DNA from: Geosiphon pyriformis uo1
Lineage: Eukaryota > Fungi > Glomeromycota
DNA: 64,000 nt
Direction of reading: 5' to 3'
NCBI GenBank assembly: GCA_016748015.1
Contig: JAAOMT010000627.1
Coordinates: 310,001 to 374,000, forward strand
Shown here: positions 5,108 through 53,514 of the stretch, piece by piece
Numbering within the stretch: the stretch's first letter is position 1
Layout: every line of letters starts with the position of its first letter
Notes under the pieces: generated by a model
Seen by the model: the letters and a program-made list of their open reading frames with translations, nothing else
The model's database searches: none
Told to the model about the DNA's origin: nothing
Made by a program: the position numbers and the translations under genes

Positions 5108-8100
5108 GTGATCTCATATAAAGGGTTGCTATGTGCAATGTTAGAGGTATGAATGTTCCTGCAAAACAAGATGATATTGTTTGTTGGCATAAAGATATAA
5201 ACAATTTGGTTTCAATTTTCATGGAAACAAAGTTAAGAAATAAGACTTGTCTTTGGTTGGTTGACAAATTTGATGATGTTTATATGTTTTTTTCTGGTTT
5301 GGACTCTGGCTATGTGGGTGCTGGTGTCATGATTGTTATGAACAGATTCTTGGCTAGGCATATGTATAAGGTTTCTGAGGTCCCAGATTGTCTTTTCTGC
5401 ATTAGATTACTTTTCAAAAATAAACTTTCAGTTTTGATTCTGGGGCTGTATGCTGGTGCCTCTTTGGCTACTTAATTTTCCCAGGCTAATGAGATCAATT
5501 CCCTGATTGCAAGAGCTATAAATGAATCTTTTTTTGTCATTCTTGGTGGTAACTTTAACAAAGATAGTTCTCATAAGTGTGCTAGTTTTAAAAAGTGCCA
5601 TGATTTGGGTTTGATTAATTCTTTGGATGGGAGTTTCTTTGCTAAGGCACCAACTTGGAGCAATTCTCAGGGTGTTGCCAAGACAATTGATTATGTGTTT
5701 GTTTCCTCAAATCTGGTGAATGTGATAATACAGCATAATGTTTTTGTTGTTAGTGAACATTTTGATATGGATTACAAAACTGTTTTTGTGTCTTTGGGTT
5801 TGGGTGGCCTTTTAGATGCAAAATTAAACTCTCTTTGCAAACAAGTGAATAAGAATCAATGAAAGTTCAATTTCAAAGATACTGATGAGATTAAATGGAA
5901 TAATTTTAAAAGTTCTACACTAGCCAATGCTATATTGTTCTTGGGTGAATTTGCTGCATCTGTGAGGTTCTCGGATTTGAACACTATGTGGTGTGTTGTG
6001 TGCAATGTTATAACTCTTTTGGCTAATAAAATTTTCAAAAAAAGACGGTTCAAAGGATTTGATAAAGTTTTCACCAAAAATTCTTCAAAATTTCATAAAT
6101 TGGAGCTTTTGGTTTCTAGAATTGTCAAGGCTTTACATGGGGAAGATGCTGGGAACTTTGTTTATCTTATGGAATGCTGAAGTTCTGTGAACAATGTCAA
6201 GTCTTCTGTTGTTCAAAATCTGGTGGATCCTGGTGCTGGTTCTGATCATATTTATTCTGATCTTTTTAGTGCTAGGAAGTCTTATTGTGCTTCCAAACTC
6301 ACTGAATCTCTGAAAGCTAAGAAAACAAACATCAGATCTGCCATTAATAAAAGAATGGAGAGCTTTGAGGTCAACAAGGGTCATATAATCAGGAGTGTGC
6401 TGAAGCGTTCATTTCATAAAGTGGTGCTAAACCATTTGGTGGTTAATAATGATCTGATTTTGAAACCTGATTTGGTTAAATCTGAGGTAGATGTGATAAT
6501 GAAGGGATAGACCAAGAAGCATCATGTGGCTGATGATATTTCATTTGATTGGTGCCATTAATATCAACCTTTGGAATACATTTTTGATGAGGTCTTTTCT
6601 GATGTAATGTGCCTGATTGGTTTTGATGAATTCTTTGGGGTGGTTTCTGATTTGCCTAATGGCAAAGCTGCTGGTTTGTCTGGTATCTCAAATAAACTCT
6701 GGAAACATTGTGATAAGTCTGTTTAGGATATGCTCTTGTTGATTTTAAATCTTTGTCTGTCTGGTGAATTGGTGTCTGGCCCTTAAAAAAAGATCTGGGT
6801 CTTGATGATTCTCAAACCATATGAATGAGAAGGTGTTTTGACCAATACTTATTCTATTGCTTTGATTGAAATGGCTCATAAGATTCTTTTTAAGATTCTT
6901 TCTGATAGGATCTTCTCAGCATGTAGTGCTTTTGATGTCCTTCATGGGGCCAATTTCTCGGTTTTAAAGGGTACAACAACTCAGTCTCCTATTTTTGCAA
7001 TTGGTTCAGTGGTAGAAGATGCTTTGAAAAAAAACCAAGAGCTTTGGCTGGTTCTACAGGACATGTGAAAAACATATGATTCGGTTGGCTGGGAACATCT
7101 CAAAAATAGTTTGATCAGAATTAAGATGTGTAGCAAGTTCATTTGTTTTTTTGGCAACATTTACAATAATTGTACCAACCAGATTATGACAGATTTTGGT
7201 TTGATGGATGGTTATCATGTACATAATAGTCTGAATCAAGGAAAAGTTTTCTCTCCTCTTTTGTGGTGGATATTTTATGATCCTTTGTTGTGTGAAGTCA
7301 GGCATCAGAAGAGTGTATGTAAATATAGACTGAATTCTCATTTTATTTCCAAGAATGATTGTGCTGAATCTTGGGCTGGGTGTTTTTCTTTTTTTGCTGC
7401 TGGTGCTTTCACTAATGATATAATTTGGGTTGGTAGCAGTCATAGCACTACTCAACATATTTTTAATATTGCCAGTGAATTTTTTCAGATCAATGATATC
7501 TCAATTAATAATAACAAAACAGTGGCAATTCCTATTAACAGCAGAGTCAGCAATTCTTCTCTTTCTATCAGTGATCTGCCTATTTCAGTCACCAAAAAGA
7601 AAGAGTTTTATCGATACTTGGGTATTTTTCTTTCAACTGAGGGCTTTTCTAAATCTAGTTTAGTAAGGGTGCATTCAGATGTTTGTTTTTTTACTAATTT
7701 GGTTTTGAAGAAAGCTGTCTCGAATAAACAGTTTTTGTATTTGGTTTTGGTGGTTTTTTATCCTATTGTTAGCTTTAGAACACAGTTTAGCTTTATTCCT
7801 GTTGGTGTGTGCAACAAATGGGATGCTTTGATTTGCAAAGGCTTAAAGCTGAAATTTGGTCTTCCATTGGACTTTCTTAGTAATACAATTCACTACTCTT
7901 TCTTTTATGGTTTGAAGTTTTTTTTGCAGTGTTAATCTGAGGGCAAGATTGCTTTACTTATTAGTTTTGCAAACTCTGGCAAAATTTTGGGGCGTCTATT
8001 TGGTCACAGGTCTCATGACTTACAGGTTCTGTGTTGGCAACCTGTTCATCCGTTGGTTTCTTCTGCTCATGTTTGTGTCAATACTTCTAATAACTTCTTA

Positions 8101-9783
8101 ACTGGTATGGTTCACATTCTTTTTGATTGCAAGTTATCTTTGGGCAGCTCTTTGGCCAGCTCTTTTCAGTTTTACAGTGGGGTACTTATGTCAGTTGTTC
8201 TTGGTGAATCTTTGTTTTGCAAGTTTTTATCTTCTCTCCAGCATTATGGTGTTGTCTTCATGGACCAGCTTTGTGATCATAATAGTAGTGTATTTAGCTG
8301 GTGCACTTTTAAGAAATAGAAGAAACTAGATCCTCATGGTCCAGTTCCCGAATGGTTTGAACTTTCTGTTGTATTTCTTGTGGCTTTTTGTTTTTTTCCA
8401 TTGGTGTCAGCTGGTGTTGGCCCTCTAAACATTTGTGGTTCTAATAATTTTGTGTCTATCTATGATCATCTTTCTCAGATTAGCGCTAATAACTTGTTTA
8501 TATACACGGATGGCTTATTAAAAAATTTGGGCACGATTGGTTATAGGGCCGGAGCTGCTGCTTTTTTTGAGGACATTAATTTGAGTTTGGGTGTTAGTGT
8601 TTATGGTTTATTGTCATCCACTTTAATGGAGCTGCAGACTATAGCATTGGCTCTAGAGTGCATGCCTACAGCTCATTTTGTTCATCTGTTTTTGGATAGT
8701 CAGGCAGCATTGGATGTTTGCAAGTTGGAATCTAACCTAGTGTGTCCTGATTTTCACAATTGGTGTTGGGTCAAGTGTTGGCATATTAGGAATGTTATTC
8801 ACAGAAAAAATTTGAGAGTTAATTGGCACAAGGTCAAGAGCCACTTTGGTATCTCAGGGAATAATTATGCCAATAGCATCACTGACACTGCGTTTCTTTC
8901 TGGTTGGTATCTTTCTCCTTGTGTTAGTGAATATTTTTTGTTGGCAGATGGTGGTATTGTTTTTGGTAATTTTAGGCACTTTGTTTATGATGTTTTTTGT
9001 GCTGTTTGTTATGCATGTTGGAAAGTCAGTTCTGGTTCTGGATTTCTAGATAGTGATTTGTGTTCAGATGTCAATTGGCTTTGTTTTTCCAAGGTTTGAC
9101 ACTCTGATTTGCATATGGCCATTGGTTTTACTAGCAGGCTCACTGCTAATACTTAAACTTACCTCATAAAAGCTTTACACTGATGGCTTTCTATGGCTGT
9201 TCGAAAGCGTATTTACAATAAATATTACCTTAGTGTTCTGTGTTTATATTGTGGAGAAGTAAAGATGTCCGATCATGTGTTTTTTTGTGTGGTTGATAAT
9301 TCAGCTCGTCATTAGGTCTTGAAATCTTGCATGTCTTCTTGGAGGGCACTTTCTGGTCTCTCTTTTCCCTCTTCAGGTGTGTTGCAGTTGATGTCAACCT
9401 GTGTCTTAGACTTTCCAGTTTCCTTAGCTCTTTACAAGAGTTTTGTTTTCAATGGATAGCTTCAGGAGGCTATTTCCATCTTCCATAATTCTAAAGTTGC
9501 TGGTGTTAAGATTGCTGATTTTGTGCACTCTATTTGTCTTGTTTTCAGGAATGACATTTGGTTGGTCTATGCTAAGCATCGCATATTTATGGAAAAGAAT
9601 AGCCTAATTCCAATAGATGACTTGATCCCTATTTCGATTTTTGGTTTGGCTTCAGAGTTCTCAGCTGGTGTGATTAAATTGCTTGGTGTTGTTGAAGTTT
9701 TTGGTATCTGTTTTGGCTTTCGCAAATCTTGTGTGTTTTTTTCAGGTATTGGTGACCCAGTTTCTGTTAATATAAGTACATAG
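5104..9783 (+). pseudogene. LINE-A ORF2 (endonuclease, reverse transcriptase, RNase H), many premature stops
   Basis: Same-frame fragments from 5131 to 9783; stops fall at TGG/CAA/CGA-type positions; ATG 5104 overlaps the ORF1 TGA. Confidence 0.92.
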
Positions 9784-9917
9784 TGTCATCCTGACTGGCT
9801 CGAGTAGCTGGTCACGTGTAGAAAATGCATGATTCACACTTAGTTTAGATCATTTCCTTGATGTATGATTTTAAGTAGTGTTTGAATCTCACTTGTTAAA
9901 TGAAATAAAAAAAAAAA

Positions 9918-10773
9918 TATATTAAATATTTTAAAAATTTTAATAAAAATTTTAAAAATTCTAAAAATAACAAAAATTTTAAAAAAACTAACAGAAATGC
10001 CAAAAATTTCAGAAATATTAAAAATTATAAAATTTTTAGAAATCTTGTATTATAAAAATTTATATATATATAATAAAAATATTAAAACAAAAAAGACAAA
10101 CAATTTAAATTAGAAACAAATTTTATTTTATCTTATTAAATAATTTTTATTGTTAATAATTTAATATTTGAAATTTATATTTATTTAAAATAAATTTATT
10201 ATATTATCTAAATTTAATTTTATAAGTTTATACTTATTTTATTAAAATCCAATTATTTTTTTATTAATATTAGTATTAATACAATATTACTAATAATATT
10301 AAAACAATAATTTTTAATTATAACTATTAATAAGATGCCAATTTTTTATTTTTTTATTTGTTTTGTTTGTGTTTATTAAATTAATTTAAAAAAAAGCACT
10401 AAAATTATAATATTAAGAATTGTTTGGTAAAAAACATAAAAAAAAAGCATAGAATATAGTCAAAGAATTAAAATTGCTTATTAAAAAAGTAAAAAACTTC
10501 AGAATAAATTGGTTATTATATTAAAAAAGTTAGATATTAAGTATTACTTACTATTAATAATAAATTTTTGTTTATAAAAAAATTTATTATTAAGACTTTT
10601 AAAAAAAATTTTAAATTAAAAAATTATCAGTTTAAGTATTAAGTTACAAAAATCTAAATAATTTAATAATTCAATTATAATAAAAAATATAAATTATCTA
10701 ATTTAGAACATTTGATTATTGTATTATATTAGATAATAATTAAGTTTTACTTATTAAAAAAAATAATTATAAT
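9918..10773 (+). repeat. AT-eroded ghost LTR of the E4 family; its 5' tip is probably at about 3048-3170, split off by LINE-A
   Basis: Collinear with the LTR at 60491-61364 (AAAATTTCAGAA-type array, TATATA, T-rich tract, terminal TATAATA read as eroded TGTAACA) and with 33600-33880(-). Confidence 0.6.
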
Positions 10774-10789
10774 AAATTTTTATATATAT

Positions 10790-11443
10790 TGTTATGATTG
10801 AAACCCATAATTTTTATGGGTTATCACATGTATTAGTCACTGATGTCATATAATTAGCCACTCTATTTTTAGATAGTGATCATTGACCTGATCAATGACC
10901 TAACTGTTGACTTGCTTATTGACCACTTTCATTAGCTATATAAGTGATGAGTCTCTTAGCTGTAAAAAATTATCTCTTAAACAAGAATCAAATAAATAAA
11001 AATAACAACTTTCATCTCAATCACTTTCTTATCACTAATTTCTCTTTCCCTACCTTCAAGTATCTGAACATCTTAAGATAAAAGATTACTTGTTAACTTT
11101 TTCCTGATGTATATAATTGTAGCATTTGAAGATTATTTGAATAAACATGACTGAAAAACACAAGTTGATACTTGATATTGAATTTTAAGAGCGCTAACGT
11201 GAGGCATAGAATTATACCAGTGATAATCAATTGTTGACAGTATGGACTATCTCTCTATCTTCAGATTCCCCAGTTACTTTTGAAAAAAATAGTGACTGAG
11301 ATATTTTATGAGACTGATCTCACACATTGAATCCATACTCATTTAATTTGCTTATTGAAGTTGAATCCTCTTTGATTATTTCCATTACCCTACAATTCTG
11401 TTCTTCCTTGCTATCCATTAGCTTGTTACTCTAACCCATAACA
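10790..11443 (+). repeat. E2 5' LTR (654 bp)
   Basis: TGTTATG...CATAACA; direct repeat of 17755-18420. Confidence 0.96.
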
Positions 11444-11449
11444 TAAAAG

Positions 11450-11465
11450 TGGTGCTCCCTGTAAG
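11450..11465 (+). promoter_or_regulatory. tRNA primer-binding site of E2 (TGGTGCTCCCTGTAAG)
   Basis: TGG-initiated, 6 nt after the LTR; identical 16-mer follows the E4 LTR. Confidence 0.88.
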
Positions 11466-11495
11466 ATTGTCAAAATTCACTTATTCCTTTATTGT

Positions 11496-13051
11496 ATGGG
11501 TGATTACTCATATCTGCCACAGTAATCAGAAGAACATTTTGCAGCACACAACAGAAACGACCTAGATTTTATTAAACTTAATCCTCTGCCTTTCTGCTTA
11601 ATTTGCTTCCCCCTTGAAGAACAATCCAGTAGACAATTCCAAGACTTTTGGAACTGGTTCCTGAATAAGCATTCAGCTGAAACTTACACAGCTTATACAA
11701 CCTATTACTTTGACCAAGCTTATTTTGAAAATGACTTTGAAGAAAGAAACAACAGTATCAATCAGCTCTTATATTCTGCAACCTTTGAACAACAGCCCCC
11801 TGATTTCGAATATCTGAATCATCAAATCCACATTTGGATTGCTGCCCATCAAGCAACTAAAACTTCCTTTAAAACAGAAAAAGAAAGCTACCAAACTGCC
11901 CCTGTTTTTGACCTTTTATCAAGCGAATTAGACTTGTTTACACAAACAGTTACCCCTGAACCAATGGCTATAACCCCATGCAAGCAAACATTCTGGCCGC
12001 CCTCCAAAGTATACAAACTGTTCTAGGAAGAAGAAACAATACCCCACTACCACTATTTAGAGGTGATGCACAAGATTCAATTGAATGGTTGGATGATTTT
12101 GAGAGAGCTGCCACAGCCAACCAGTATGATGAAGAATACAAGTTCTAAATTATTGGTGGCTACCTCCAAGGCTCTCCTGCTACCTGGTTTTCACAAGAAA
12201 CAGATGCTAATGCTCAATACAGAATAATCAGATGGACACCAATCAATGCTAAAGAAGAAAATACCTCTTTCACTACCCAATTTGAGGCCAAGTTCAGAAC
12301 CCCAATATTAATATTCAAATGGCGCATGGAATTAGAAAAAAGAACCCAAGGCCCTGGAGAAGTAGTGACTGAATATACCAAAGCCATTAGAAAGCTAATC
12401 AAATGTGTAGACTTTGGGAAAAACTGGACAGAAGAACAAAAGATTCATTCCTTCACAAAAGGATTGAAAACCAATTTATCTTATGCTCTTTGGCCTCTCT
12501 TAGCCCTAAAAGACAACCCTACAATGGACATGGCCATTGAACTTGCCCAACGAATTGAAAACAACCAAAGAATACATTTGGGATCTACACTTCCAGTTTT
12601 TGCTTCTGCTCTTGTTATGGCTCCTGCCCCTCAAATGGCTGCTGCTTTTTTTGCTGCCCAAACTCAAGATCCAAATGAACAATTAATTGATAGACTCACA
12701 GCCAATCTTGCCCAGTTATTAGAACCTTTAGCACAAGCAGTCAGAGATAACCAGCAACCACTAAGACCTAGATACGAACCTTGTTTTAACCAGCCCCAGC
12801 AACCTCCCTATCAAAGACAGCAAAATTGTGGCCCACTTGTGTGCTATTGTTGTGGATTAACTGGACATTATTTAAGAGATTGTAACAATTCTCTACTGCC
12901 TCCTCTAGCTCCCAGAAACAATGACAACCAAAACAACAGACCCAACAACAACAACAATGTCTCCAATCAAAGACCTAATTATGCCAACATCAATTTCTTT
13001 GGAGAGGATTCCCTAGTTGAAACCACTGTTTATCAATCTTTAAACTGGTAA
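11496..13051 (+). pseudogene. E2 gag (capsid-like domain plus CCHC zinc knuckle), disrupted
   Basis: ATG at 11496; EWLDDFERAATANQY and QGPGEVVTEY..AIRKL capsid-like motifs; CYCCGLTGHYLRDC knuckle; stop TAA 13049-13051. Confidence 0.88.
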
Positions 13052-13076
13052 GCACACCTCCAAAGAGTGAGAGTGC
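13039..13076 (+). promoter_or_regulatory. Putative programmed -1 ribosomal frameshift site (T TTA AAC plus stem-loop)
   Basis: Gag codons TCT TTA AAC TGG TAA give a correctly phased X XXY YYZ heptamer; the -1 frame is open into the protease ORF; hairpin GCAC..CTC CAAA GAG..GTGC starts 6 nt downstream. Confidence 0.8.
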
Positions 13077-16000
13077 AAGCCAACCAAAAGAAAACCCCTT
13101 TTATGCTTTTAACTTAACTGATAATGACCATAACATGGATGAACTAGCAATTAACCCCTTTGAATTCACAAGAAAAAAGAAGAAAGCCAAAGTTGATTTC
13201 ATTCTGGACCCCAATAAAGCTTCTACATCAACTGCTGACAACAATGAACCTCCAAAAGCCAAAGTTTTCAAGAACTCTTCAAAGTTAGAACCCCCAGAAA
13301 TAGTACAAAAATCCGGCCCCTATTTTGTTGTCAAAGACTTCATGAAAACCCCAGCACATATAACCTTTGGCCAATTAATGACCCATTCACAATTCAGAAA
13401 AGATCTTCACAAATCTCTGATTTCAAAGAAAAAGACACCCAAAACCAACAAACGCTCTCGCCAAGCTGGACTTGCTGACAATAGCAATGTCACTCCTCTA
13501 ATTTGCAAAGCCCAAGTGGCTGGCTACTTCATTGATTTAATTCTAGACAGTGGATTATCTGTTAGTGTTATTGCTAAACACTTTCTTGAAGCAATTGGCA
13601 GAAAAATTGATGAACTATCTACATGACCAATAACCAATGTGCATGGTGATAAGAAGAAAGGGCTTGGCATAGCCAAAGCTATTCCTGTTTGCATCAATGG
13701 CATCAGTATTGAAACTGATATGGAAGTATCTGAAGTGAAAGAATATACTATCATTGTTGGCAATGAATGGCTCAAGAAAGCAAAAGCTTTGCTTGATTAT
13801 GAACTCTGTGAACTAACCATCAGATGTGATGAGAAACCTATTGTGGTTAAATGTCACCATTGGACAACTCCCCCAGTACCCAAACAGAGCCCAGAAAAAA
13901 ATAAATCAGACGAATCAGATGATGAAGAAAGTAAGGAAGAAGAAAAACAAGAAGAACAAGAAGAAACTGTTAAACTCGCCTATACTATCTTCACCAGCAA
14001 TGGCAAACCACTGGATAATGTCAAGGCAGATAAAGAAGGAATCATTGTCAATGACAAGCTGATCTGCTGGCCTTATTATGACATGCTCAGAAGAACCTTT
14101 AACAGAAAGCCAGGCAAGAAAGCCAAATACAATTATTGGTGGCATGGTCCTTGTGCCCAGTGCTGGTGCGACAAACCATTGTATTTTCCTAGCAATGAAT
14201 GCATGTTCTGCCTGATATATTACAAGGATTGGGAACCAATCAGCTTGATACCCCGTAAGGAAATAAAAGAAGTCCAAAAGTCCTTTGAAAATGAACCACC
14301 TGAAATCCAATCACTGGTTGTAAAACAAAGAGAACTCTCTCCAGAAGAAAAAAAGATAGATATTAAAAACCTGCTGACTAGAAACAGCCCAGTTATCTCA
14401 AAAAAAGGTGAACCTTCTGGACATACACATGTGATACAACACACCATCATTACCAGAGAAACTTGCCCCATCTATTTGAAGCCCTATCAATCTAACCAGC
14501 ACAATGATGAGTTTATCAAAAAGAAAATAACCCGAATGAAAAACCTTGGATTCATACAGAAAACCAAGAGTAAATGGGCATTCCCAGTTGTAGTGGTATC
14601 CAAAAAAGGAGGAACCCTATGCTTTTGTGTTGATTATCGCCAATTAAATGCCATTACTGAAAGAGACATGTACCCACTTTCCAAGATTGATGCAATGCTA
14701 GACCAATTTCATGGTGCCACTTTCTTCTCAACTATTAACTTAATTGCTAGATTTTGGCAAGTAGAGATGGATCCAGAAAGCAGAAAAAAAACTGCCTTCA
14801 TCACCAAGTATGGCACCTACAAATTCACAGTCATGCCTTTTGGTCTCACAAATGCTTCTCCCACTTTTCAATGCTTAATAGACAAAGTATTTAAATCAGT
14901 AAAAGAAAACTTTGTTCTAGTCTACTTGGACGACATAATGGTATACTCAAAAACCTGGGATAAACACCTTGAATATTTGCAAAAGGTTTTTGACCTCCTT
15001 AGAAATGCTGGCCTCAAGATCAATCCAATCAAATCATTCTTTGGACATCAATCCACTCAGTTCCTTGGTCATCTTATTACAAAAGATGGAATCTTCCCTG
15101 ATCCAGCCAAAATTGAAAAAGTTCAAAACATTAAACAACCAATGAATGTTCATGAACTATGCTCTTTTCTTGGTTTGGCCTTTTATTATCGCAAGTTTGT
15201 CAAAGATTTCTCCAAAATCGCCACTCCTCTCAATCAGCTACTTAGAAAAAACATCAATCATCACTGGGGCACTCATCAACAAAAAGCATTTGAAATTCTG
15301 AAGAAAAAACTGGTTACAGAACCCATCCTCATGCAACCTAATCTGGATCAACCTTTTATCCTCCATACTAATGCATCTGGCTATGAATTTGGTGCTGTTC
15401 TTTCCCAGAAAGACGAAGATGGCAGGGAACATGCCATAGCATATGCCAGTAGAACTCTCACACCAGCAGAAAGGAACTACTCAGTCACTGAGCAAGAATG
15501 CTTAGCAGTAGTTTGGGCTACCAGCTACTGAGACAAATATCTTAAGGGTGTAAAATTTTTGGTGGTAACAGATCACCAAGCTTTGGTTTGGCTACACAAC
15601 AAAAGAAACCTGGATACTCCACTTGGATGAATTCAACTATGACATTCAATACTGCCAAGGAGCTAATCATCAAAATGCCGACGTTCTCTCCAGACTTACC
15701 ATCCAGTGATAGTAAAACCCTCTCAAACCAAACCAACTTAATTATTTGTAACTCCCCCACAAACAAACATGATAATGGACTTGGACAACTACTCTGCTTT
15801 AATAGAATTTTTGGGTAAAAGACAATACCCACCAGACTATACTCGACAGCAAAGAGAACATTTGCACAAACAATCAAATTTCTATTTGATTCGCCAGAAC
15901 CAGTTATATAAAAGAAATAGAAAAGATCCTGACTGCCCTCAAAGAGTTATTAGATTTGAAGAAAGAGAAATTGTGATCTACAATATGTACACTGATCCAT

Positions 16001-17028
16001 TAACTGGACACTTTGGAAAAACAAAAATGATTCAGAAAACTTTAGCTCACTATTATTGGCCTACCTTAGAAAAAGACATTGCTGAATACATCAAAACCTA
16101 TAATACCTGCCAAAGAAGAAGAAAACCCAATCACAAGAAAGATATCCATCCGATCTCTGTTGGTCAACCATTTGACAGAATTGGTATAGATGTTGTTGGA
16201 CCTTTAACAGTAACTCCTGATGGCAACAGATACATTATCACAGCTACCGACTATCTTACAAAGTGGGTAGAAGCAAGAGCCACCCCAGATCAAACAGCAG
16301 TCTCAATTGCCAATTTCATTTATAAAGATATTATCTGTCATTATGGCTGCCCCAAAGAACTTTTATCTGATAGAGGAAGAGCTTTTCTCAGTACACTGGT
16401 TAAAGAACTTTGCAGAAAAATAGAAATACATTATAAACTCTCTTCCCCTTATCACCCCTAAACAAATGGTCTAGTGGAACATTTCAATAAAACACTATGT
16501 GAAACCCTAGCCAAAACCAGTGAAGAAACCAACCTATGAAACAAAGTATTGCCTTCAGCTTTGTTTGCCTATAGAACTGTGAATCATGACATAACAAATT
16601 ATGAACCTTTTTATCTGCTCTATGGATGAATGGCAACTCTACTAATAGAAACGGATATAGAAACAATACTTTTTGAAGAAATAACAATAGGAGATTACAA
16701 GAACATTTTGCAAAGAAGACTTGGTACTATTCTTGACTCATTGGTAGAAGCATGGATAATTGTCTTTAAAAAGATAAAACAGTTCCAAGAGAAGCTCAAA
16801 AAGAAAAAGACCTATAAAACACTTTCCTTAAGTGTTGGTGACTTAGTTTTGGAATACCATTCAAACAAAGACAATGTCTATGGTGATAAATTCTCCAGCC
16901 ACTGGAAAAGACCTTTTATAGTCAACAAAGTTTTGAACAATGGTTCATATATCCTACAAGATCAATATGGAACAATATTCAGTAATTACCCTATTCATGA
17001 CACACGACTTAAGAAATATCACAAATGA
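13040..17028 (+). pseudogene. E2 pol: aspartic protease, RT, RNase H, integrase, with premature stops
   Basis: LILDSG; CVDYRQLN, MPFGLTNA, YLDD; LHTNAS..GAVL, RNYSVTEQECLAV; GHFG..C, IGIDVVGPL, LLSDRG, SSPYHP. Confidence 0.96.
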
Positions 17029-17075
17029 CCTGATTAGTTACCTGTTGTGGTAATACTGACCCAAATGATCAATAA

Positions 17076-17711
17076 AAATCAGATATAAATAAATGCACCA
17101 TTTCCAAAACAGAGGTATCTTCAATTGACATAAACAATTATTTTCTAGATCAAAACATTCAAAATGCTTTCTACACTCTCCATGAGTACTGGATCAAAAA
17201 TTATCCAAATGCTACTCTGACTATTGGAAAACAAACCACCATAACTGATAACAGTGGAACACATACTGTTATTAGACCAAAGAAAACCACTACCAGAAGA
17301 GAAAAAATTGGTAGCAAAATGGATAAGTATTTGCTGGAAAGCATAACAGCAACAATACTTACATCTTCCATGACAATTGGAAAAATAATTAAGAAAATCT
17401 TGCTCATAGACAAAAACTTGTCATATGGAAGACAACTAGAACTCTATGGTTGTCTTGATGAAATTATAAAAGAAATGAAGCTCATAAAGAAAACAACTTC
17501 AGAGATACAAGTGGAAATTTTGGGCATTATACATTTAGATGTCCCAAGAGTTTTGACCATTGCAAGAAGAGCCAAAACTCTTATACAAAAATTTGGTCTC
17601 TTGGATACAAAGCTTATTTCATCTCAAGTACTATATACACTATTCACAAAAGACTTCAACAAACTAGTTAGTTTTGAGTTAGACAAAAATCTTCAATTAG
17701 ATATCCTATAA
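17076..17711 (+). CDS. E2 accessory ORF3 (frame open for about 211 codons; start possibly ATG mutated to ATA at 17085)
   Basis: The listed ORF 17319-17711 extends without stops upstream to 17076; same genomic slot and similar motif pattern as E1 ORF3. Confidence 0.65.
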   Translation, partial: KSDINKCTISKTEVSSIDINNYFLDQNIQNAFYTLHEYWIKNYPNATLTIGKQTTITDNSGTHTVIRPKKTTTRREKIGSKMDKYLLESITATILTSSMTIGKIIKKILLIDKNLSYGRQLELYGCLDEIIKEMKLIKKTTSEIQVEILGIIHLDVPRVLTIARRAKTLIQKFGLLDTKLISSQVLYTLFTKDFNKLVSFELDKNLQLDIL

Positions 17712-17754
17712 ATAACTTGATTTCGCCAGAGTTCAATCTCTTTGAAGAGGATAA

Positions 17755-18420
17755 TGTTATGGTTGAAACCCATAATTTTTATTAGTTATCACATGTATTA
17801 GTCACTGATGTCATATAATTAGCCACTCTATTTTTAGATAGTGATTATTGATCTGATCAATGACCTGACTGTTAACCTAATCATTGACCTAATCATTGAC
17901 CACTTTTATTAGCTATATAAGTGATGAGTCTCTTAGCTGTAGAAAATCATCTCTCAGACAAGAATCAAATAAATAAAAATAACAACTTTCATCTCAATCA
18001 CTCTCTTATCACTAATTTCCTTTTTCCTACCTTCAAGTATCTGAACATCTTAGGATAAAAGATTACTTGTTGGCCTTTTCCTAACGTATATAATTGTAGC
18101 ATTTGAAGATTATTTGAATAAACATGACTAAAAAGCACAAGTTGATACTTGATATTAAATTTTAAGAGCGCCAACGTAAGGCATAGAATTATACCAGTGG
18201 TGATCAATTGTTGACAGTATGGACTATCTCTCTACCTTTAGATTTCCCAGTTACTTTTGAAAAGAATAGTGACTGAGATATTTTATGAGACTGATCTTGC
18301 ACATTGAATCCATACTCATTTAATTCACTCATTGAAGTTGAATTCCCTTTGATTATTTCCATCACCCTACAATCCTGTTCTCCCTTGCTATCCATTAGCT
18401 TGTTACTCCAACCCGTAACA
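17755..18420 (+). repeat. E2 3' LTR (666 bp), preceded by PPT GAAGAGGA
   Basis: TGTTATGG...CCCGTAACA; 12-bp tandem duplication relative to the 5' LTR. Confidence 0.96.
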
Positions 18421-18966
18421 ATATAATAATATATATTAATTGCATAATAATTTTATAAAAACTGCTTATTTTAAATTTAAATTTAAAAAAATACAAAAAT
18501 TTAAATAAATAAGCTTTTAAATAATGTAATTTTATTGTTTAAATTGTTTAAATAATATAATTTTAACATTAATTTAAATAACCAATTATATGCAAAAAAT
18601 ACATAAACTATTTGTTATTACAATTATATAAATTGTAATTAAATTACATTTATTAACATTTAATAATAATAAATAAAGTTATGAAAATATTTATAAACAT
18701 TAATTTAACAAAACCATTTTAATAATACAAAATTTAAATTTAAGTAAATAAATCATTTTTTTTACTATGGATTCAAATTTATGGCTCCAAACTTAAAATT
18801 TGTGAACAAATCTAAAGCCTATGGCAGGCTTTGAATAGTTTGTTGATTGGCTCAAGACAAATTCAGTACACAATATTCATGCTGTCAATTAAAAAAATGT
18901 GCAATCATTTAAACATTTGCAGCGTAGCAGCCTCATGTATGCTTTAAATTATGTTATTGTTTTTAG

Positions 18967-21900
18967 TCATTCGGAATGAAAAAATGGTGAAATAGGGAAC
19001 CACTCTTTACATTTAGTCCGAAACATTTCAGCTTTTGGAGACTGGAAAGTCGTTACCAAACTCTTATAAACATCGATGCAATTCTTTTGAAAGGGATAGG
19101 ATATAAATCAGTACAGAAATAAAATTCGTTTTAAACATTCATAATGACATTGAAATGGCAAACCGGTAATGTTCTTGTAGCCAGATATGCTTGGTTATCG
19201 ATGATATCTAGTAACATATCTTCAGCTTCTTGTTTATATTTCAAATCTATGAGAGTTAACGTCTCTGCTCCCAACAGTAAATGTGGAATGAAACCTATGT
19301 TTCTGTTCATAAATGCAGTGTTGAAATCCCGAAGTGGGACTCCCTCAGGAAGAATGCTTGCACACTGTTTGGTAATAACTTGGGCTACAATTTTGTGAAT
19401 CTTGGAATCTTGGTCGACTGCAAAAGTCAAACAATAATTTAGGATTATTTTGAGTTGTAATTAAGAAATTTTTTATTTACCGGTTATCTTAAACATAATC
19501 ATATTTTTGTGGAGGATCGGATTGTTTTTCTCAATTTGTTGCGCCCGCAAAAGAGACCTGAGGGCTAAGAGGTATTTTTCTGTAGTTTGAAACAAGATTA
19601 ATCGTGTAATACAAGACAAAGAAAGAAACAAGCTTAGCTTTTAGTATTTTAACTGACTTTTTCTTAAATAAATATCAAAACTCATCAGATGAGTTTCAAT
19701 TTTTTTCGAGGCAAGTTCTTGCAGTGGCCTAAGAAATTTTAGAGCATCAACTAAGGGGTCGAGAGTCTATTTTTTAAAAAAAAAGAATAGTCGATACTCA
19801 TAACTGGACATGTTTATTTATTCGGTAGCGATAAATTTGGATAAAAATTATACATACTTTTACGAATTTTTCACCATCAGGATCTTCATCCGGAGGTTTA
19901 TCTACAATTTTTCTTTTAGCCTGTTCCTCTGAAGGTTAGAATCACAGGAAATCCCCAAGATTAATAAAAACTTTATTGAGGTAAATAGAACATAAATCTG
20001 GAACTCTGCTAACCCTTCTTTGCATCTTCTTGTTGAGCCTTAACAGCAGCTTTCTTAGCCTTACTTTTAGCCTTTTTTATTTCACCTTCAGTCATATTGG
20101 CTATGAACAGAGCTAACGTTGGTAAGTTCCTCTCAAAAAGCTTCCTCAGTTTTCGGACTTACCATAATCTTCCTTTTCTTCTCCGTTGGTAATGGAGGAT
20201 GGATTATCGTATAGATTCAAGTAAATCTATTGATATACATTTAAGTAATTTGAATTTCAGTAATATCTTTCAAAATTTTTCCTACATACTTTGATAGCAT
20301 TCTGCGCTGCGCGAAAATAATAAGGGTGTGATCGCAATTGATCTTCTAAACGCAGCATGCTTCATAAAGTGTAAACGGTAATTAATATGTCTAAGATACT
20401 ATTAAGGAATAAACCTAGTTTTGGATAAAATTACCTCAAGTAAGCGCGGAGTGTAACTTTGCGCAAGCAATAAGAATGAAAATCAAATTGGTCTTCAGTA
20501 ATATCCGCGAAATGCTAGAAATATTGGATTAGTATGTTAAATAATTTGGCTTATAAAATTTTTACAGAAAAAATCTTACTACCTTCTCAATTTGATAAAA
20601 TCGTTTGAGTGCTTTGCCGAACCTTCTATGTCTCATATGACATTCACCTTCCTCTAGAGCAAACCACATACATTGCATATCCACAAGATCTGTTATTGGA
20701 TCCGGAGCATCACCCTAAAAGATGATTTCAAACATTAAAATTTTAGTTTATTATAAATACCTAAAATCAACAGCCAAAAACATACTCTTGTAAAAAGTCC
20801 AACAATCTTTTCGGCTTCTGTCAGTTGACCGTTTCTAAGCATGTATTTGGTGCATTTTGTATTGATAAATCTATCTTGAAAATCTAGTTCCCGTGCTTCG
20901 TTCATTACTTTCATCGCTTCAGCTACGTCTCCACCATGCTATCGTATTGCCAATATGTATCAATTAAGACTAATTTGCGAGCTAGATGCCATCGAATATA
21001 GCTGTCAAAAATCGGACCTTAAGAATACGACCCTTCGTCATGTACAATTCAACCATGGTAGGAGTATGGACAATCGCTTCGTTTATTAGCTCCAGGGCTC
21101 TTGTGGTGTTACCCTTATGGTCATAATGTTGAGCAAGAAAATTAAGTGTCCACAAATACGCTGTTGGAGGTTCCTTGACTTCAGAATCGGTTTTATTGAA
21201 TGTAAATGTACTATTTGTCTTCAAAGACTGAAGGTATCCTTCCAGAAGGCTCTCAATTAATTTTTCTTTCTCAGGATCTTTGTAAAGGTTTTTAATATTC
21301 ACGAACAAAGAAAATACGCCTTTGCGAAGCATTGGCTGCAAATATTCATCCAAGACCTTCCTGAAATTGTCGCCTGATAAAAATAGTAAGTTAATGGATC
21401 AAATAAAAGTTGAATATAATTTTATAGCTTTTTAATGACCAACCAGTCGTAAACTGTAATGGATATCGTTTGATGAAATTTGATCTTGGATATTTTTCTC
21501 CAAATTCTTTGAACTTAGTCATAAGTAATTTTTGCTCCTCTTCGTTTAGTCCTTCTGATCCGAGCATGAGATTTTTTAGACTTAGTGGAATTCGAGACTT
21601 CTTTTACCTTTTTGAACTGAAAAAATAATTCTCACCAGGATTGATTTTTCGAGACTTTAGAAAGCCTTCGAAGTAATGGTTGCAATCTGGATTACAATCA
21701 ATTAATTCTAAATATGTAGCTTCAGCTTCTTCGTATCTATCAAGTTTCAACAGAAACTGGGCTGAATTAAATTTAAAACAAATGAGTTGGAATTTGCCAA
21801 GCGCATTCTTTCATCATCAGTATAGGGCGCAAACCTCTTTTCTCTTTCCAAGATATTCGATCACAGACTCCATGTTTAATATCATCAAGATGTTGTAGAG

Positions 21901-22963
21901 CTGCAAAGATGTTGCCACTTTCTTCGATGATTAGATTATGATACAAAAGCATTTCACTATGTTCGAAATCCATTGGCCCTGGCTTTTCCTTTTTGTGAAG
22001 GATTGAGCAATTCACTTAGAATCTAGTTGTATTCACATAAATTGAACAAATATAATACCTTTAGTGTATCTTGATGTGCCTTCAATACGTTTTCCGCTGT
22101 TTCGTAATTGCCTAATAAGTGATATGATATAGCAAGGCCCAGCCAATACTTTTGATTGGTTGGTTTTTGTTGTAGCAATTGGTTTATTGAGTCCTAAAAT
22201 CGCCAGAAACTTGAGAATTCTGATAATGTTGAAATTTGCATAGACGTTTCAATCATGAGCTTTCTTACATTGAAAGCTTCGTAGTTTCGCATTTGAATCA
22301 CCAGCAAGGAATAGTCTCCAAGTATTTGCATATTGGCCTTTTTAACATTGATTATCAGTAAAGTAAATTATTTTTTATGAATTCATGTTATTGAAAAACC
22401 TTATCAATCTTCAAGGCTTGGGTGTAACATTTTAACGCTTGGGTATAATTCTTGTCAGATCGGTGTAGCAACCCATAAACATGCCAACCTGGTAATTATT
22501 TAATTTTTAATTTAACTTGATGATGATTCAGAGGATAGATGAGATTCATAAACTTACAAATATGACTATACTTTAAGTCGTAACTTAAGCCTTTTTTGAC
22601 AAATTCATAGGCCTCTTCTTTTCTATCCATATGATTGAGAAAGAGCCCTTTCATTGCCAAAGTATCTAAGTGAAATATCAAATTTATTTAATAATCACTC
22701 ATTAATTTGTTTAAATCATGCATCCAGAATTGATACAGGCTTAAGATGAGCCTTTACCTCCATGTTCTGGAAATTTTCTCAATATCTGTTCAGCGGCCTT
22801 CAAGCCTTTTTTGTACTGTTTGTATTCGTAGCATTTCTATAAGGCAAATTCGTTTATTCTACTGAACCAGAGTGCAGATGTACAACAAAGCAACACGACT
22901 CATAAAGCTACTTGCTAAAATATGCTTAAAAAGGCCAGACTCTTTTGATGGTAATTCCCTCAT
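18967..22963 (-). CDS. NAT1: N-terminal acetyltransferase A auxiliary subunit (NAA15/Nat1, TPR protein), multi-exon
   Basis: Spliced translation [42 protein letters not shown]; EHSEMLLY; [17 protein letters not shown]; [19 protein letters not shown]; [12 protein letters not shown]; DEDPDGEK; ends [10 protein letters not shown]. Confidence 0.93.
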
Positions 22964-23188
22964 TTTACTTTAATACACGAATTATGAATGCATAAACGTT
23001 GAAGTTAGCAAAGAAAAGTAGGCATGGAAAAAAAAGATAATGGATTGTGGAACTAGTAGTTGCCAATAATTAAATAACAAAATAATGTGATTTCAGATCT
23101 GTGATTGATTTAATTTTTTTAGCACTGAACTTACCCTGGAACAAACGAAAGCTTCAAAGAAGTAATTGTAGACGCAAGTGTCACCATT

Positions 23189-26043
23189 ATGAATACCCTT
23201 ACTATTAATGAAAGATCTGAGACGAAGCTTACAGAAAGCTTAGTGCTTGAACAAGATAGGCTTGAACATTTTACAAAAAACGCCCTTGATGCTACTTTTA
23301 ATGGGCTCGGTGGCCCGTCTCAGAGCTCTTTCTCAGCCAATAACACAGATTTAATTCCTCTGTATGCTTTAAATCCTGAAGAAACTTCATTTGTACAACG
23401 AGGAGCTTTGAGAGACTTTTCTACCAATACATCAGAGGAGATCACAGAGTGTGAGAAAATTAAAGCCCAAGAACAAAATATAGATATAATATATAGTGAA
23501 TCAACAGAAACACAAAGCAACGAACAACAAACTCTCAACCCTCCTGCTTACGCACTGTTTTCCTATGATTTTTCAAAGCCTTTGACTCCTATTTATTCTA
23601 CTCGCGATATGTTTAATGAAACAGTAAAGGATAGCTTGAAAAATTTATCTCTTCAAATAGGGCTGGGAGAAAATTATGAAAGTAATGCGACTAATGGTTG
23701 GGAGGATAATTTCTTTAAAATCGCTAAATGGTGAGTGACTAAAGCAAGAGGTTCTTGATATTCTTTTAAATTTCTGAAAATCTAATTTAGACCAGTTTTT
23801 TCGAATGTTATTTAACAGGTCACCTGACGGAACTTGTATTTTGACTTCCTCAAATGATAATATGATGAGATTGTTCGAGCTGTAAGCTGGTCATCTGTCG
23901 CGTTAAGATTCATCCAATTACCTTGCACCATTTACTTTTTGGCCCATCCTCCACTATAACACTAGCATTTCGGAACCTCAGGTTCTATGGCACATTGGGC
24001 CTCTTTGTGCTTTTATCTTGTTTTGAATTTGATTAATAAAATAGCTGTTTCTCCTTTTAACAACGCAGGCCATCTGATGTTTTTGAAACAAATGAAGGTT
24101 CTCTTAAAGTTTAATTTAGTTTAAAAATCCAAGAATTTTTTTCCGCTCTAATTTTTTTTCAACTCAGAACTCCTTTTAAAGCCGGTTCTTCTTGCAAGAA
24201 TTGGTGAAACTGTTTACGATTGTTGCTGGTATCCTATGATGTCAAGCCAAGGTAGTGTTAAGTTACCGAAATATTTTTCCAGATTCAACTAAAATTGAAC
24301 AAAAAATAAAAATTTCAGATCCTGGTACGTGTGGTTTTCTCGTGTCAAGCAGAGATCATCCTGTCCATTTATGGGATGCCTTCTCAGCAAAGGTATAGAT
24401 ATATTTCAATTATCTCATTGCTTAATTTATATGATATTACAGTATTAACATCAAGCTGTAGTCGAGATGCTCTTATACAATTATCGATCATCGTGAGCAA
24501 GTTGTCGGTCCAAATTCGCTAGCATTTAATCTGGACGGTTCAAAGTAAGTATATTCTCGCGATCTGTTAAGATTTTATCTTCAATGAAATTACATTTAGC
24601 ATGGTCTAAGATCAGATAGCTCTGTAAATATTTAACAACCTTACCCAAATTTGAAGAGGTATTGGGTCATTAAATCTTTGCTACATTTTCAAGAAATCAT
24701 AATTTCCCGTTTATCATCTTGGTTTCATTTATTTAAGGAATACTGTTTTTAAATGAAGATTCAACACTTGTTATTCATGAAATTGATTTCTAAAAAGAAT
24801 TAACTTTTTTATTTGGTATCTTAAAAAGGATATATTGTGGGTACAAAAATATGATTGAGGTATTTGAAACCAGTCGGCCAGGACGCGAGAGCGAGAAATA
24901 TCCTACTACCCCCAAAAGAAAGAGTAAAGAAGGACAAAAAGGTAAATATCAATTGAGCATAATATATTGAATACAGAATTTAGAAAACATCAATCTTAAT
25001 AAGGTTTTCAGGCGTTATAACTTGCTTCGCATTCAACCCCGATTACTCGGGATTATATGCTGCTGGATCATATTCAAAAACCGTTGGACTTTATGATGAA
25101 AGCAACAACTCATTGTTGTTTCTTTTGCGGGCTCTCGCAGGTGGCGTCACTCAGGTGAATTTAAACTGTGCAATCAAGATATAAATGTGAATAAAGCTTT
25201 ACATATTTTATTCTGGATTAATTTTGTAGGTTAAATTCTCTACAGATGGTCACTATCTTTTCTCAGCATCTCGAAGGGATAATCGAGTTCTATGCTGGGA
25301 TATTCGAAATACTGGAGAAATACTTTACAAACTTGATCGAAAGGGAGATACCAACCAAAGACTATCTTTTGACATCGATCCAACAGGAAAATATTTGACT
25401 ACAGGAAATCAGGTGAGAATTATTTCATTTGTCAAAATCGGAATGCAACAGCGTTATACTTTTTCAGTGTATTCTTATAAATTTTGTAGATGAAATCTTA
25501 TTAACAACATTATTTTGCTCTTGATCCTAATATCCATCTTATTTGTATTAGGTACTACTTTCAGTCTCTTTATTTTCCTTCATTAAAATGTCATCCTTAA
25601 AAGGAAATTTGCGCTGAATGGTAAGAATTTCAAATTGATAATTCTAATATAGGACGGCCAAATATTAGTTTATGATATTAGTACTGGAACTGATAAAGGG
25701 ATTCAGCGAAAAGTCCTCGAGTGTTCTGCACATGGCGGTAAGTTGATGTGAATTTTAGATTCATTATAAACTCTAATAATGACGCTTCATTTCAATGGTA
25801 ACAGATTCTATTTCTGCTGTTGAATTCCATCGTGCGTTGCCACTTCTAGTATCTTGCTCAGGGCAGAGGAAATATCATACTGTTGATGAAAACGATCTCA
25901 AAATGATGGAAAATTCTTGGTCTAGACAAAAAAGCAAAAGTGATAACTCTCTTAAAATTTGGAAAATATATGGTAACTACGAGTGGTACCCTTATAAAGA
26001 TTATGATGTCCAGCAACCCTTAGAAATTGAAATAGATCCATGA
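23189..26043 (+). CDS. WRAP53: Telomerase Cajal body protein 1 (TCAB1/WDR79; Swt21-like) WD40 protein, multi-exon
   Basis: KWSPDGTCILTSSND, GETVYDCCWYPMMSSQDP, SSRDHPVHLWDAF, IYCGY, SRPGR, GQKGVI, GGVTQ, WDIR, TNQRLSFDID, SCSGQR. Confidence 0.9.
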
Positions 26044-33900: not shown

Positions 33901-34073
33901 AAAAATATATAAACTATATTTAAATTAAATTATATATTATAAAAAAAACTCTTTCTTTCGTTGATCCCCTGACCATAATGAAAGCATAAAGTAGTCAAAA
34001 AAATATCTTTCTTTTCTCTTATTCCCTTTTGTTTCCTTCAGTTATTTCTTTATATACACCTCTGTTCGTGACA

Positions 34074-49989: not shown

Positions 49990-52900
49990 GTAAATATAAT
50001 TGCATATAATTTTAAAAAAATTGGCAAAAAAACTTGTATAATTAATTAATTATTTAAGTTTAATATTAAAATATATTATATTATTATTTGCTTTAAATTA
50101 AAAAAACTATATAATTAGTATATTGTATTATTTTGGTATTTGGTAATATAATTTTTTTTAAATTAAATTAAATTTAATTTACTACAAAAAATATAAACAT
50201 TTTAAATACACAATATTAAAGTATAATTTTTTTAAAAATTTTTTTTTTATAAAAAATCTTTTTTAAATAGTAATTGTTTTTAGTTGGCTTATTTTTTTGC
50301 CAAAAAAAAACATTTCTATTTTGTGTTTAATAGATTTTAGTAAAAAATTTTTAGCTTAAATTGTATTATTAATTTTTATTATAAATAAGTATTAATTTAA
50401 ATCATATTTTAATTTTTTTTTATTTGGTTTGTTTTTGTTTGGTTTAATTGTTGTTTTATCTTATTTTATTTTTTTTAGAATTAATTAATTAACCATTTTT
50501 AAATAGTTATTAGAGTTTTTAATTAACCAAATAATTAAGATTTTAAATTAATTTAAGTTTTTTTGTTATTTTTTTTTAATTTTTTATCACATTTAGTTGT
50601 ATTAATGACTTTAAAATTTAATTTAATTTTAGATATAATTATAGATAATATTAATATATCAAATATTAGTATAATTAATATTGTATATAACTTTATATAT
50701 ATATATTATAATATTTTAAAAAATTTTACAACCAAAATCAACAGCTTAAAATTTAAAATAATTGTTTTTAAGATTTTTGTCAATATAGTTTTGGTAAAAT
50801 TAGATTAATTGTTTATTAGTTTTAACTTTTTATATAGTTTTATTTAAAATATAAATATTTTTGCTAAACAAAATAACATTATTTGTTAACATAAAAAAAT
50901 AAATAATATAGTATTAATTATAATAAAACCAAATTAAAGACCAATATTAAATCATAAATTAAAGACAAATTTAAAAAAATTTGAGTTTTTATATTAAATT
51001 AATTTTTGATTTTTTGAAGTTTAATATAATAAACAATATATTAATTAAATATATACATAAGATATTATAAATTTTTGGCAATTTGGTTGCTTTTTAAAAA
51101 CAATTTGTTAATTTTAATACTTAAATTATATGCTAAAGCTTTTATTAAAATTAGATTAAAATAAGGTTGTAAAATTTATTTTTTAATAATATAAGCAATT
51201 AATAATAGTATTTTTATTATATTAAAAAAATATTTTAATAAAAATAGCAATTATTAAAGTGCAAATTTTAAAAAATATTTTGATTTAAATTTATATAATA
51301 TTTTGGCTAATAGTTTAATAATTAAAATCTCAATATAAAACAATTTAAAAGATATTTACAAAGTTATTAATTATATTTTTGTTAATAATTTTTTGATTTT
51401 TGTAATTATTAATCATAATATTAGTAATGTTTCGAATTTTTTTAATATAAATTACAAAGTGATTTTAATATTAATTGGTTTAAATAAATTGTTAAATACA
51501 AATTTTTTTGGTAATATGCAAATTTGTTAACAAAAACCATTAAAAATTTAAGCTTCTGTTAAATAAAATCAATTCAAGAATTTGTTTTTGGTTTTGGTTT
51601 TAAATAAAGTTGTTTTTTATGTTTAAACAGTAACTTAAATAATATGTAAATTATTATTAAAGATATTTTTTGCTTATTAGTAGATAAGATATTTAATTTA
51701 TTATAGAATATTATTATAAATAATAATAAAAATAAATAATTATCTGAATTTTATAAGTTAAAAATATTAGTATTAAAAATTGTTAATAAATAAAAAAATA
51801 ACATTAATATTGAATTTAATTAATTAATAAAAATATAATAATCTGTTAATAAATCTAAAATAATTATAATAAAAAATATATTAAATTTTAATTCAAATAT
51901 AAAAAATATATATCTTATAAATATTTAGAATTAAAAAAGATTATAAAATCTTAAAATATCATAAATTTTCTGTAAATAAATTATTAAAAATTTAAATAGC
52001 TATTAATATATATAAAATTTTATGCTCAATAAAAGCTTTATAATCAAAAATATTTTATAATATTTATTTAGAAGAATTATTTTAAACCACTTAATTGTTG
52101 GTAATAAACTTATTTATAATTTTAATTTTGTAAAATTTAATATTAATAATATAATAAAAAACTAATTAGAAAAAAGTTAATATTAAAAATAATATTTAAT
52201 GTCTAATTAAATTAATATAAGCTTTTAAATTATATAAATTATAATATTATAAATTATATCTATTAAAAAAAATTAAATAAAATTGGTAAAAAATTTTTTA
52301 ATGATAAAGCAGTAAAATTGTCTGGTATTTTTAATAAACTGTAAAAATATTATGATAATATTGTTTTAAATTATTTTTACATTTTTTAAACATATATTTA
52401 AATATTAAAATAGTGTTTTTTTTTTAACATAAAATTTAAATATTTATAATTTTCAAGTTTTATAATTAGAATAATATTCTTATTAATACTTAATTTATTA
52501 TATTAATTAAAATTAACAAAAATATTTTCTTAAAAATATTGTTAAATCAAATTTTTTTAATATATAAAAAGTTTAAATATTTTTACATAATAATTTTTTG
52601 ATGTTAAAAAGCACCAGTATTTAGTCTCTTATTTTTGTAATTAGTTTGGTAATTAAAAATGTTTTAAAGAAAAAAAAAGCTTTAATTAATTTTATAAAAC
52701 ATGTATAAATAATTTAATAAAATAATTTTATTTAAAATACAGATTAATAAAAATTAAAATATGCAATATTTTTTTAGTAGTATTTATAATAAACAAATCA
52801 AGAAAATTATAATATATTTTGATTTAACAGATATATATATAATTCATAATAACTTAGATTAAAATAAAATTTTTTTACTACTACTATAAAAAATTTATTA

Positions 52901-53450
52901 TGATTTTCTTTTATATAAAATTAAAAAACAAAAACATATGTATAAAAATAAAAATAATTATGATGTGTAATAAATTAAAACAAATTAAGCTTATAATTAG
53001 CTTTATGTTATTTTTTACTATTAGAATATTTGTTAATAATACTATCTAAGTTAATAATTTTTTGATTAAAATATAATATATTTTAAACATTGTTAATAGT
53101 TTTTTTACTATTAATAATATTTTGATTAATAATAAAAAAATAGTAATTATTTCTATTAATTATAAAATTAAAATTTTTTTTTTAAATATTTAACAATTTA
53201 TTTTAAGTATTAAAAAAAATAAAATACACAAATATTTAAGTATTTTTTTATTAATTAAAAGTTTGTTTATATTTAACTTAAAAAAAGTAAATATAGATAT
53301 TAATTATTTTATAAATATTATTACTAATATATATGATTAAAATACAATACTTTTATGCAAAAAAATTACAATATATATTATAAAAATTAATATTAAAATT
53401 ATGTAAAAAAAACTATATTATCAAAATTAATCTAATAAATATTAATCAAT
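49990..53450 (+). mobile_element. Ghost LINE (end of ORF1 plus APE-RT of ORF2), eroded to near-pure AT
   Basis: Collinear relics: near 51090 FKNNL.ILIL.LYA (=LFKNKLSVSILGLYA); near 52300 NDKAVKLSGIFNKL*KYYD (=DGKAAGLSGISNKLWKHCD); near 52600 LKSTSI*SLIFVISLVIKNVLK; near 53030 FVNNTI* (=FVDDTIW). Confidence 0.8.
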
Positions 53451-53514
53451 AAAAAAAATTAATAATTAATTTAATTATAATTAAATTATAATATACTTTA
53501 ATTAAAAATCCAAA

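Follow-up and report, generated by a model that had tools for sequence, protein, structure and literature searches.

We found that repeats in a 64,000-nucleotide stretch of the Geosiphon pyriformis uo1 genome (Glomeromycota; assembly GCA_016748015.1, contig JAAOMT010000627.1, positions 310,001 to 374,000; hereafter the window) carry post-insertion, two-stranded and directional C>T change, which affects two unrelated element families and leads to decay to about 10% GC. The analysis centres on E2, a 7.6-kb element assigned to Ty3/Gypsy because it has long terminal repeats (LTRs) with a target-site duplication and encodes gag, protease, reverse transcriptase (RT), RNase H and integrase in that order. 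C/G changes to T/A at about 35 times the reverse rate, on both strands and mostly outside CpG, and the non-CpG preference is for a 5' T, with no preference for CpA. The most likely cause, to which we give about an even chance of being right, is that repeats are methylated at cytosine in all contexts and that the ensuing deamination goes unrepaired.

Upon aligning the two LTRs of E2, 48 of 654 columns were found to differ (Kimura two-parameter distance 0.079), comprising 46 transitions (26 C/T and 20 G/A) and two transversions, a transition share above that of a transition/transversion ratio of 2 (p = 1e-6) or of 5 (p = 0.009). A preliminary description of this DNA had counted about 49 substitutions, about 47 of them C/T or G/A and about six at CpG, and had noted that some CpGs survive in both copies; we obtain 48, 46 and 6, and two surviving CpGs. 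Since the two LTRs differ from one another, the changes postdate insertion, and the T/A state is carried at 30 transition sites by the 5' LTR versus 16 by the 3' LTR (p = 0.054). When each transition pair is taken as C or G ancestral (45 of the 46 have a clear neighbour), grouping the cytosines by 3' base gives 18/92 changed for CA, 12/41 for CC, 6/12 for CG and 9/81 for CT, and grouping them by 5' base gives 25/94 for TC, 10/41 for CC, 4/26 for GC and 6/64 for AC. CpG is hit more often than the other contexts (6/12 versus 39/214, p = 0.016); outside CpG, cytosines after T change more often than those after a purine (R; TC 23/92 versus RC 6/81, p = 0.002), and CA is not above CC and CT taken together (p = 0.72). 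The LTR pair alone gives no direction, and further copies were therefore analysed.

Across 64 G. pyriformis copies of the pol frame, we observe C>T at 1642 of 18029 sites (9.1%), T>C at 71 of 26992 (0.26%) and transversions at 100 of 85870, each transversion class lying at 0.11-0.12%. These copies were drawn from 102 protein matches, the other 38 being left out of the spectrum, which is built on 777 codons, out of 905 with good coverage, at which most copies have the window residue, and counts only changes with one possible route. From these rates one would expect 41 + 2 transitions and 3 transversions in the E2 LTR pair, where 46 and 2 are observed; E2 itself departs from the family majority by 63 C>T and 3 T>C changes, by 5 transversions and by 8 changes that are ambiguous or of another kind. 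The same direction is seen in the contigs of one run (X1; 62,076 contigs aligned at 80% likeness and a 1% share, the figures being threshold counts of places), where 76% of all C show C>T (1204 of 1582) and 77% of all G show G>A (898 of 1173), over a stretch that contains only 35 CpG. The reverse changes T>C and A>G affect 395 of 2201 and 299 of 2785 places, respectively, and transversions 374 places. X1 is possibly the assembly's own sample and so displays family copies rather than independent support; runs X2-X4 (47, 17 and 2 matching contigs) were left out, the four runs coming from at most two samples. A second family, of non-LTR RT elements, has C>T at 7.9-9.3% versus T>C at 0.6-1.4% (120 proteins listed, of which 115 or 57 passed the identity filters), and its agreement with the Gypsy family means that the bias is not peculiar to one reverse transcriptase. 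An LTR motif had no match in metagenome contigs and an RT query none in prokaryote genomes; five distant loci that the RT query found in metagenome contigs (45-49% identity) were not used.

Next, we examined the sequence context. In the pol family the 3' base has no effect outside CpG (CA 9.8%, CC 9.9%, CT 8.8%; Kruskal p = 0.13), and the rate depends on the 5' base on both strands (T 14.8%, C 8.7%, A 6.6%, G 5.8%; p about 1e-21), with TpCpH (H, any base but G) at 14.8% and RpCpH at 5.9%, both well over T>C, and with pyrimidines at +2 and +3 increasing the rate about 1.4-1.7x. The TC share is even across 59 copies (chi2 51/58), and in the non-LTR family TC reaches 11-13% versus 6-7% for AC and 8-9% for GC, with a slight CA excess (p = 0.03-0.07). 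In a further LTR family, where one LTR was compared with a solo copy, the differences comprise 37 transitions and 5 transversions and have no 5'-T bias (AC 11/56, TC 13/54), which argues against a general TC preference. Per site, CpG changes fastest, with a hazard of about 0.57 per cytosine versus about 0.1 elsewhere (about 6-fold), a rough figure inasmuch as the 15 CpG arginine columns behind it (R kept in 159 of 493 cells) were picked for holding R; it is used in place of the spectrum's own CpG rate of 9.9%, which is biased low because the majority filter drops the most mutable columns. The rates are ordered CpG >> TpC > CpC (by 5' base) > ApC/GpC >> T>C > transversions. Because CpG sites are few, CpG contributes 13% of the E2 LTR differences and an estimated fifth or so of all changes. 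The earlier claim of mostly non-CpG mutation accordingly holds for the number of changes and not for the rate per site, and, CpG being fastest per site, decay of methylated CpG forms part of the signal. That many changes are CpA/TpG is true in the same limited sense: CA is the most numerous class in the LTR pair, merely through site abundance, the rates per site of CA, CC and CT being equal.

The end state is found in relics. In a collinear relic of the non-LTR RT family, 305 of the 438 C/G sites common to three younger copies are now T/A (C>T 100/147, G>A 205/291) versus 35/1059 in the reverse direction (T>C 24/659, A>G 11/400); none of its changes with a shared 3' neighbour lies at CpG, and cytosines after a pyrimidine have changed more often than those after a purine (95/107 versus 78/120, p = 2e-5). 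Four LTRs of a third family, including the one into which E2 inserted, form a GC series of 30, 21, 10 and 9%, and under the repeat spectrum GC should settle at an equilibrium of about 4%, with the relics at 9-11%. When comparing repeats with genes, we derive an AT-ward bias of 24 for repeats versus 2.7 for introns. The single-copy control gene NAA15 has 20 introns with 26.7% GC and an observed/expected CpG ratio of 0.75, and its four-fold sites have 34% GC, those of a BTB gene 44%; its exon at 20985-21398 (-) matches Geosiphon pyriformis G9A89_015581 at 98%, the next match being Ambispora at 71%. The CpG ratio is 0.03-0.5 in most 1-kb bins of the transposable elements (TEs) and 0.74-0.85 in the gene island at 19-32 kb, and introns and intergenic DNA hold 27-34% GC on both strands directly beside 10% blocks. 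At three of the five repeat/gene borders examined the shift occurs within about 100 bp, and at two it is more gradual. A direction test on NAA15 gave 13 forward versus 9 reverse changes, as in other species, and is weak because any stationary process gives parity.

The tempo was examined in those of the 64 copies that have 100 or more scored sites (58 copies). Strand polarity is absent (chi2 47/58), neighbouring changes do not share their polarity more often than in simulations (812 versus 843+/-20), and changes are not closely clustered (250 close pairs versus 292+/-13). The C>T load differs 0.2-2.3x among copies (chi2 238/57) while other changes, few in number, are Poisson, and on the same few counts it does not follow them (rho 0.17, p = 0.21). 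Together these data fit a single process acting in small steps, with a dose depending on locus or age.

The coding damage agrees in part. Nearly all premature stops had been attributed to TGG>TAG/TGA, CAA>TAA or CGA>TGA. Of the five alignable stops of E2, four fit this, lying opposite Q, Q, R or W of related sequences (W in one sequence only), the fifth being unassigned; 28 of 40 stops in three non-LTR copies and 9 of 23 in the relic face W, Q or R, and the references for the non-LTR copies and the relic are only about 35-65% identical. Indels, described as rare, are so in the X1 contigs (35 indel versus about 3,170 substitution places), and E2 itself nevertheless has frame changes near 12030 and 15605.

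The proposed mechanism would combine two enzymes. A DNMT1-type enzyme would mark CpG heavily and a DIM-2-type enzyme with a 5'-T preference would mark the other contexts more lightly; methylcytosines in repeats would then deaminate to T without repair, probably accumulating gradually over many nuclear generations and not in a few bursts, and the rate order would mirror the methylation level. CpG is fastest and the remaining contexts are graded below it, as expected of methylation-linked deamination, and the lack of polarity and clustering is what a slow process predicts. The preliminary description had proposed repeat-directed deamination or non-CpG methylation, and is supported in part: the directional, two-stranded, mostly non-CpG change in repeats, with neighbouring genes spared, speaks for it, and the lead of CpG per site, the 5'-T preference, the lack of a CpA preference and the absence of strand-coordinated or clustered bursts call for corrections. 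Arbuscular mycorrhizal fungi are stated to carry DNMT1, DNMT2, DNMT5, DIM-2 and RID (PMC8298701, citing an earlier survey), and the table of a 2026 review places RID in Ascomycota only (PMC13297926). DIM-2 is described as methylating all dinucleotide contexts, with a CpA preference in the repeat-induced point mutation (RIP) of Neurospora (10.1101/115501), and CG and CHH methylation is reported for Phycomyces TEs (PMC11258239).

Several points weigh against methylation-linked decay as the whole account. Both documented DIM-2-linked mutation spectra are CpA-specific and that of Geosiphon is not. The excess over T>C (about 35x outside CpG and roughly 200x at CpG) is hard to reach by passive decay, about 10x at CpG being usual in mammals, so an active deaminase or the loss of a T:G repair step may be needed. 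The uneven C>T load, untied to other changes, hints at episodes or locus effects. The family spectra are built from predicted proteins that passed identity filters, with related copies non-independent, and the single-copy control is one of base composition, in which selection or gene conversion could hold intron GC up.

A clearly less probable explanation is true RIP with a new target, that is, a homology-triggered, premeiotic enzymatic conversion that depends on RID or DIM-2 and adds, over many light rounds, to ordinary CpG decay. As in the RIP of Neurospora and other Pezizomycotina, we find directional, two-stranded C:G>T:A change in repeats, nonsense codons and AT-rich relic blocks; base composition favours confinement to repeated DNA, and the very large excess, sharp borders and over-dispersed loads would suit such a process. 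Arbuscular mycorrhizal fungi are stated to retain RID (PMC8298701), and targets differ among fungi, Pucciniomycotina using a 5' T in TpCpG (PMC3318451). Unlike RIP, however, the Geosiphon pattern has no CpA preference, CpG is fastest and the 5'-T bias extends to all 3' contexts; the composite RIP index is not positive in E2 (-0.76 internally, -0.56 and -0.47 in the LTRs) and only +0.1 in relics; the family attained high copy number; and seven other Glomeromycetes are scored no_rip (PMC12543289). Strand-coordinated, clustered changes within a copy are a feature of RIP. The 58 copies show neither polarity nor clustering, a signal that many light rounds would wipe out. We therefore describe the pattern, which recurs in copies spread over many scaffolds, as RIP-like in effect and do not class it as RIP, because it shows neither a CpA target nor the expected indices or polarity, and any RID/DIM-2 dependence or premeiotic timing would be putative. 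If true, this explanation would imply a cryptic sexual cycle.

An improbable alternative is that a C>T pressure acts on the whole genome of this surface-living fungus, through ultraviolet (UV) dipyrimidine damage, a TpC-preferring cytidine deaminase or poor repair of uracil, and that transcription-coupled repair, biased gene conversion or selection protects the genes. Damage by UV and of the APOBEC type ranks TpC > CpC > RpC. The order observed here is the same, the +2/+3 pyrimidine effect points the same way, and Rev1 is reported lost in Glomeromycotina (10.1101/2025.09.02.673565); the same source, however, reports that G. pyriformis retained Pol zeta, ApC and GpC still change at about 6% (over 20x T>C), changes do not cluster, and neither the GC and CpG content of introns and intergenic DNA beside the 10% blocks nor the near-parity of NAA15 changes is what such a pressure predicts. 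Ordinary CpG decay, editing at the reverse-transcription stage or sequencing artefact is the least probable group by far and is largely refuted. CpG is indeed the fastest class and depleted in the TEs, and some CpA/TpA differences could conceal lost CpG, but 21 of the 45 LTR changes lie at CC or CT, which cannot derive from CpG, and none of the relic changes with a shared 3' neighbour is at CpG. The equal impact on both strands, the post-insertion differences between the LTRs, the agreement of two unrelated RT families and the intact adjacent genes also speak against this group. APOBEC-type editing of cDNA, which gives plus-strand G>A fixed at insertion, was rejected as C>T equals G>A and the LTRs differ in both directions.

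Among other known systems, Zymoseptoria tritici offers a likeness to methylation-linked decay, in that Dim2 raises mitotic C>T there (PMC8016269), a methyltransferase-linked non-CpG erosion of TEs without a cross; the enzyme is putative in Geosiphon, and the Zymoseptoria effect is CpA-specific, whereas Geosiphon has equal rates at CA, CC and CT and its highest rate at CpG. The TpCpG hypermutation of Pucciniomycotina shares RIP-like C>T in TEs outside Ascomycota and the 5'-T preference; according to the available text of PMC3318451, partial TpCpG matches are not elevated there, whereas in Geosiphon the excess is not limited to TpCpG, with TpCpH and even RpCpH strongly elevated. Rhizophagus and Gigaspora, with CpG methylation of TEs (PMC8647823; 10.64898/2026.01.14.699541), resemble Geosiphon in that TEs and not genes are CpG-depleted and CpG is fastest, and differ in that most Geosiphon changes lie outside CpG; in the available text of these sources the methylomes were called for CpG only and thus provide no test of non-CpG methylation. 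RIP signatures are reported absent from Gigaspora margarita and Mucoromycotina in the accessible part of PMC8647823 (citing Venice 2020), and a survey of 1,239 genomes scored 30/30 Mucoromycota, including the 7 Glomeromycetes, as no_rip (PMC12543289); 'Geosiphon' and 'Ambispora' had no match in 12 of its 19 supplementary files, genome list included. We found no published report of RIP-like mutation in Geosiphon, in a literature search that did not cover the Geosiphon genome paper.

The features of E2, the relics and the control gene are collected in Table 1. The LTRs of E2 end in TG...CA. The motif beginning with TGG we take to be primer-binding-site-like, a putative label. The extra open frame had no Pfam match and lies outside the coverage of the retrieved family proteins.

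Table 1. Positions in the window of E2, the relics and the single-copy control gene.
Feature	Position	Strand	Details
5' LTR of E2	10790..11443	+	654 bp; T/A state at 30/46 transitions
3' LTR of E2	17755..18420	+	666 bp, with a 12-bp insertion; T/A state at 16/46 transitions
Target-site duplication of E2	10786..10789		ATAT, 4 bp; right copy 18421-18424
Motif starting TGG, just downstream of the 5' LTR	11450..11465	+	recurs after another LTR near 61367
gag region of E2 (Retrotrans_gag)	11466..13051	+	stops at 11523, 12024 and 12146; frame change near 12030
pol region of E2 (protease-like, RT, RNase H, integrase)	13021..17028	+	stops at 13624, 15529 and further on; frame change near 15605
Extra open frame of E2, between integrase and polypurine tract	17076..17711	+	211 codons
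Polypurine-tract-like stretch adjoining the 3' LTR of E2	17744..17754	+	
Relic LTR of another family, insertion site of E2	10150..10789	+	10% GC
Collinear relic of the non-LTR RT family	49990..53500	+	10.5% GC; tblastn 4e-21 and 2e-19
NAA15, single-copy control gene	18967..22963	-	835/836 residues map to the window

Elsewhere in the window, copies of the non-LTR family with RT and RNase H lie at 3000-9900 (+), 33900-40900 (+) and 42200-49800 (-), with 37, 42 and 35% GC; all 120 matches listed for the family belong to G. pyriformis, and it looks lineage-specific and large. The first Gypsy family has a solo LTR at 46828-47670 (-), inserted into a non-LTR copy and 91% identical, with a 23-base N gap, to an LTR at 1960-2597 (feature 1645-2597, +). 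An older Gypsy copy at 54050-60500 (-), with 23% GC and 4 CpG in 7 kb, represents an intermediate stage of erosion, and no second true LTR pair was recovered from it. Between two Gypsy elements, a short tandem-like array of near-identical units of about 20-40 bp occupies 60540-60740, with GC-poorer flanks. The intron-rich host genes beside NAA15 (23100-31530) include an Armadillo-repeat gene at about 27100-30200, a single-exon BTB gene at 30716-31531 and, judged by eye, a candidate WD40-like gene at 23129-26040; a 350-bp island of 10% GC with sharp borders at 26550-26900, between two genes, is possibly a small relic repeat. LTR elements are reported to make up 41.2% of the G. pyriformis genome (PMC11952901), and at least 184 proteins annotated as 'hypothetical proteins' in G. 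pyriformis are fragments of decayed retroelements and may make the gene count too high.

For the dating of insertions, the E2 LTRs diverge by 7.3%, compared with an estimated 1.5% under intron-like bias, an inflation of about 5-fold that bears out the earlier warning; LTR ages and Kimura landscapes of the Geosiphon genome overstate age, and RIP indices based on CpA miss systems of this type. A strong non-CpG repeat mutator in an early-branching member of Glomeromycotina provides a direct test of DIM-2/RID-type enzymes outside Ascomycota and, if premeiotic, would bear on the old question of sex in arbuscular mycorrhizal fungi. We suggest only tentatively, and regard as rather unlikely, that Geosiphon (Archaeosporales) possesses an active, enzyme-driven repeat mutator that is TpC-biased, accepts any 3' base and is invisible to CpA-based RIP indices. 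Were this the case, RIP would exist outside Dikarya, repeat-directed mutagenesis would either go back to the ancestor of terrestrial fungi or have arisen independently, and the genome would record cryptic sex within a mycorrhizal lineage.

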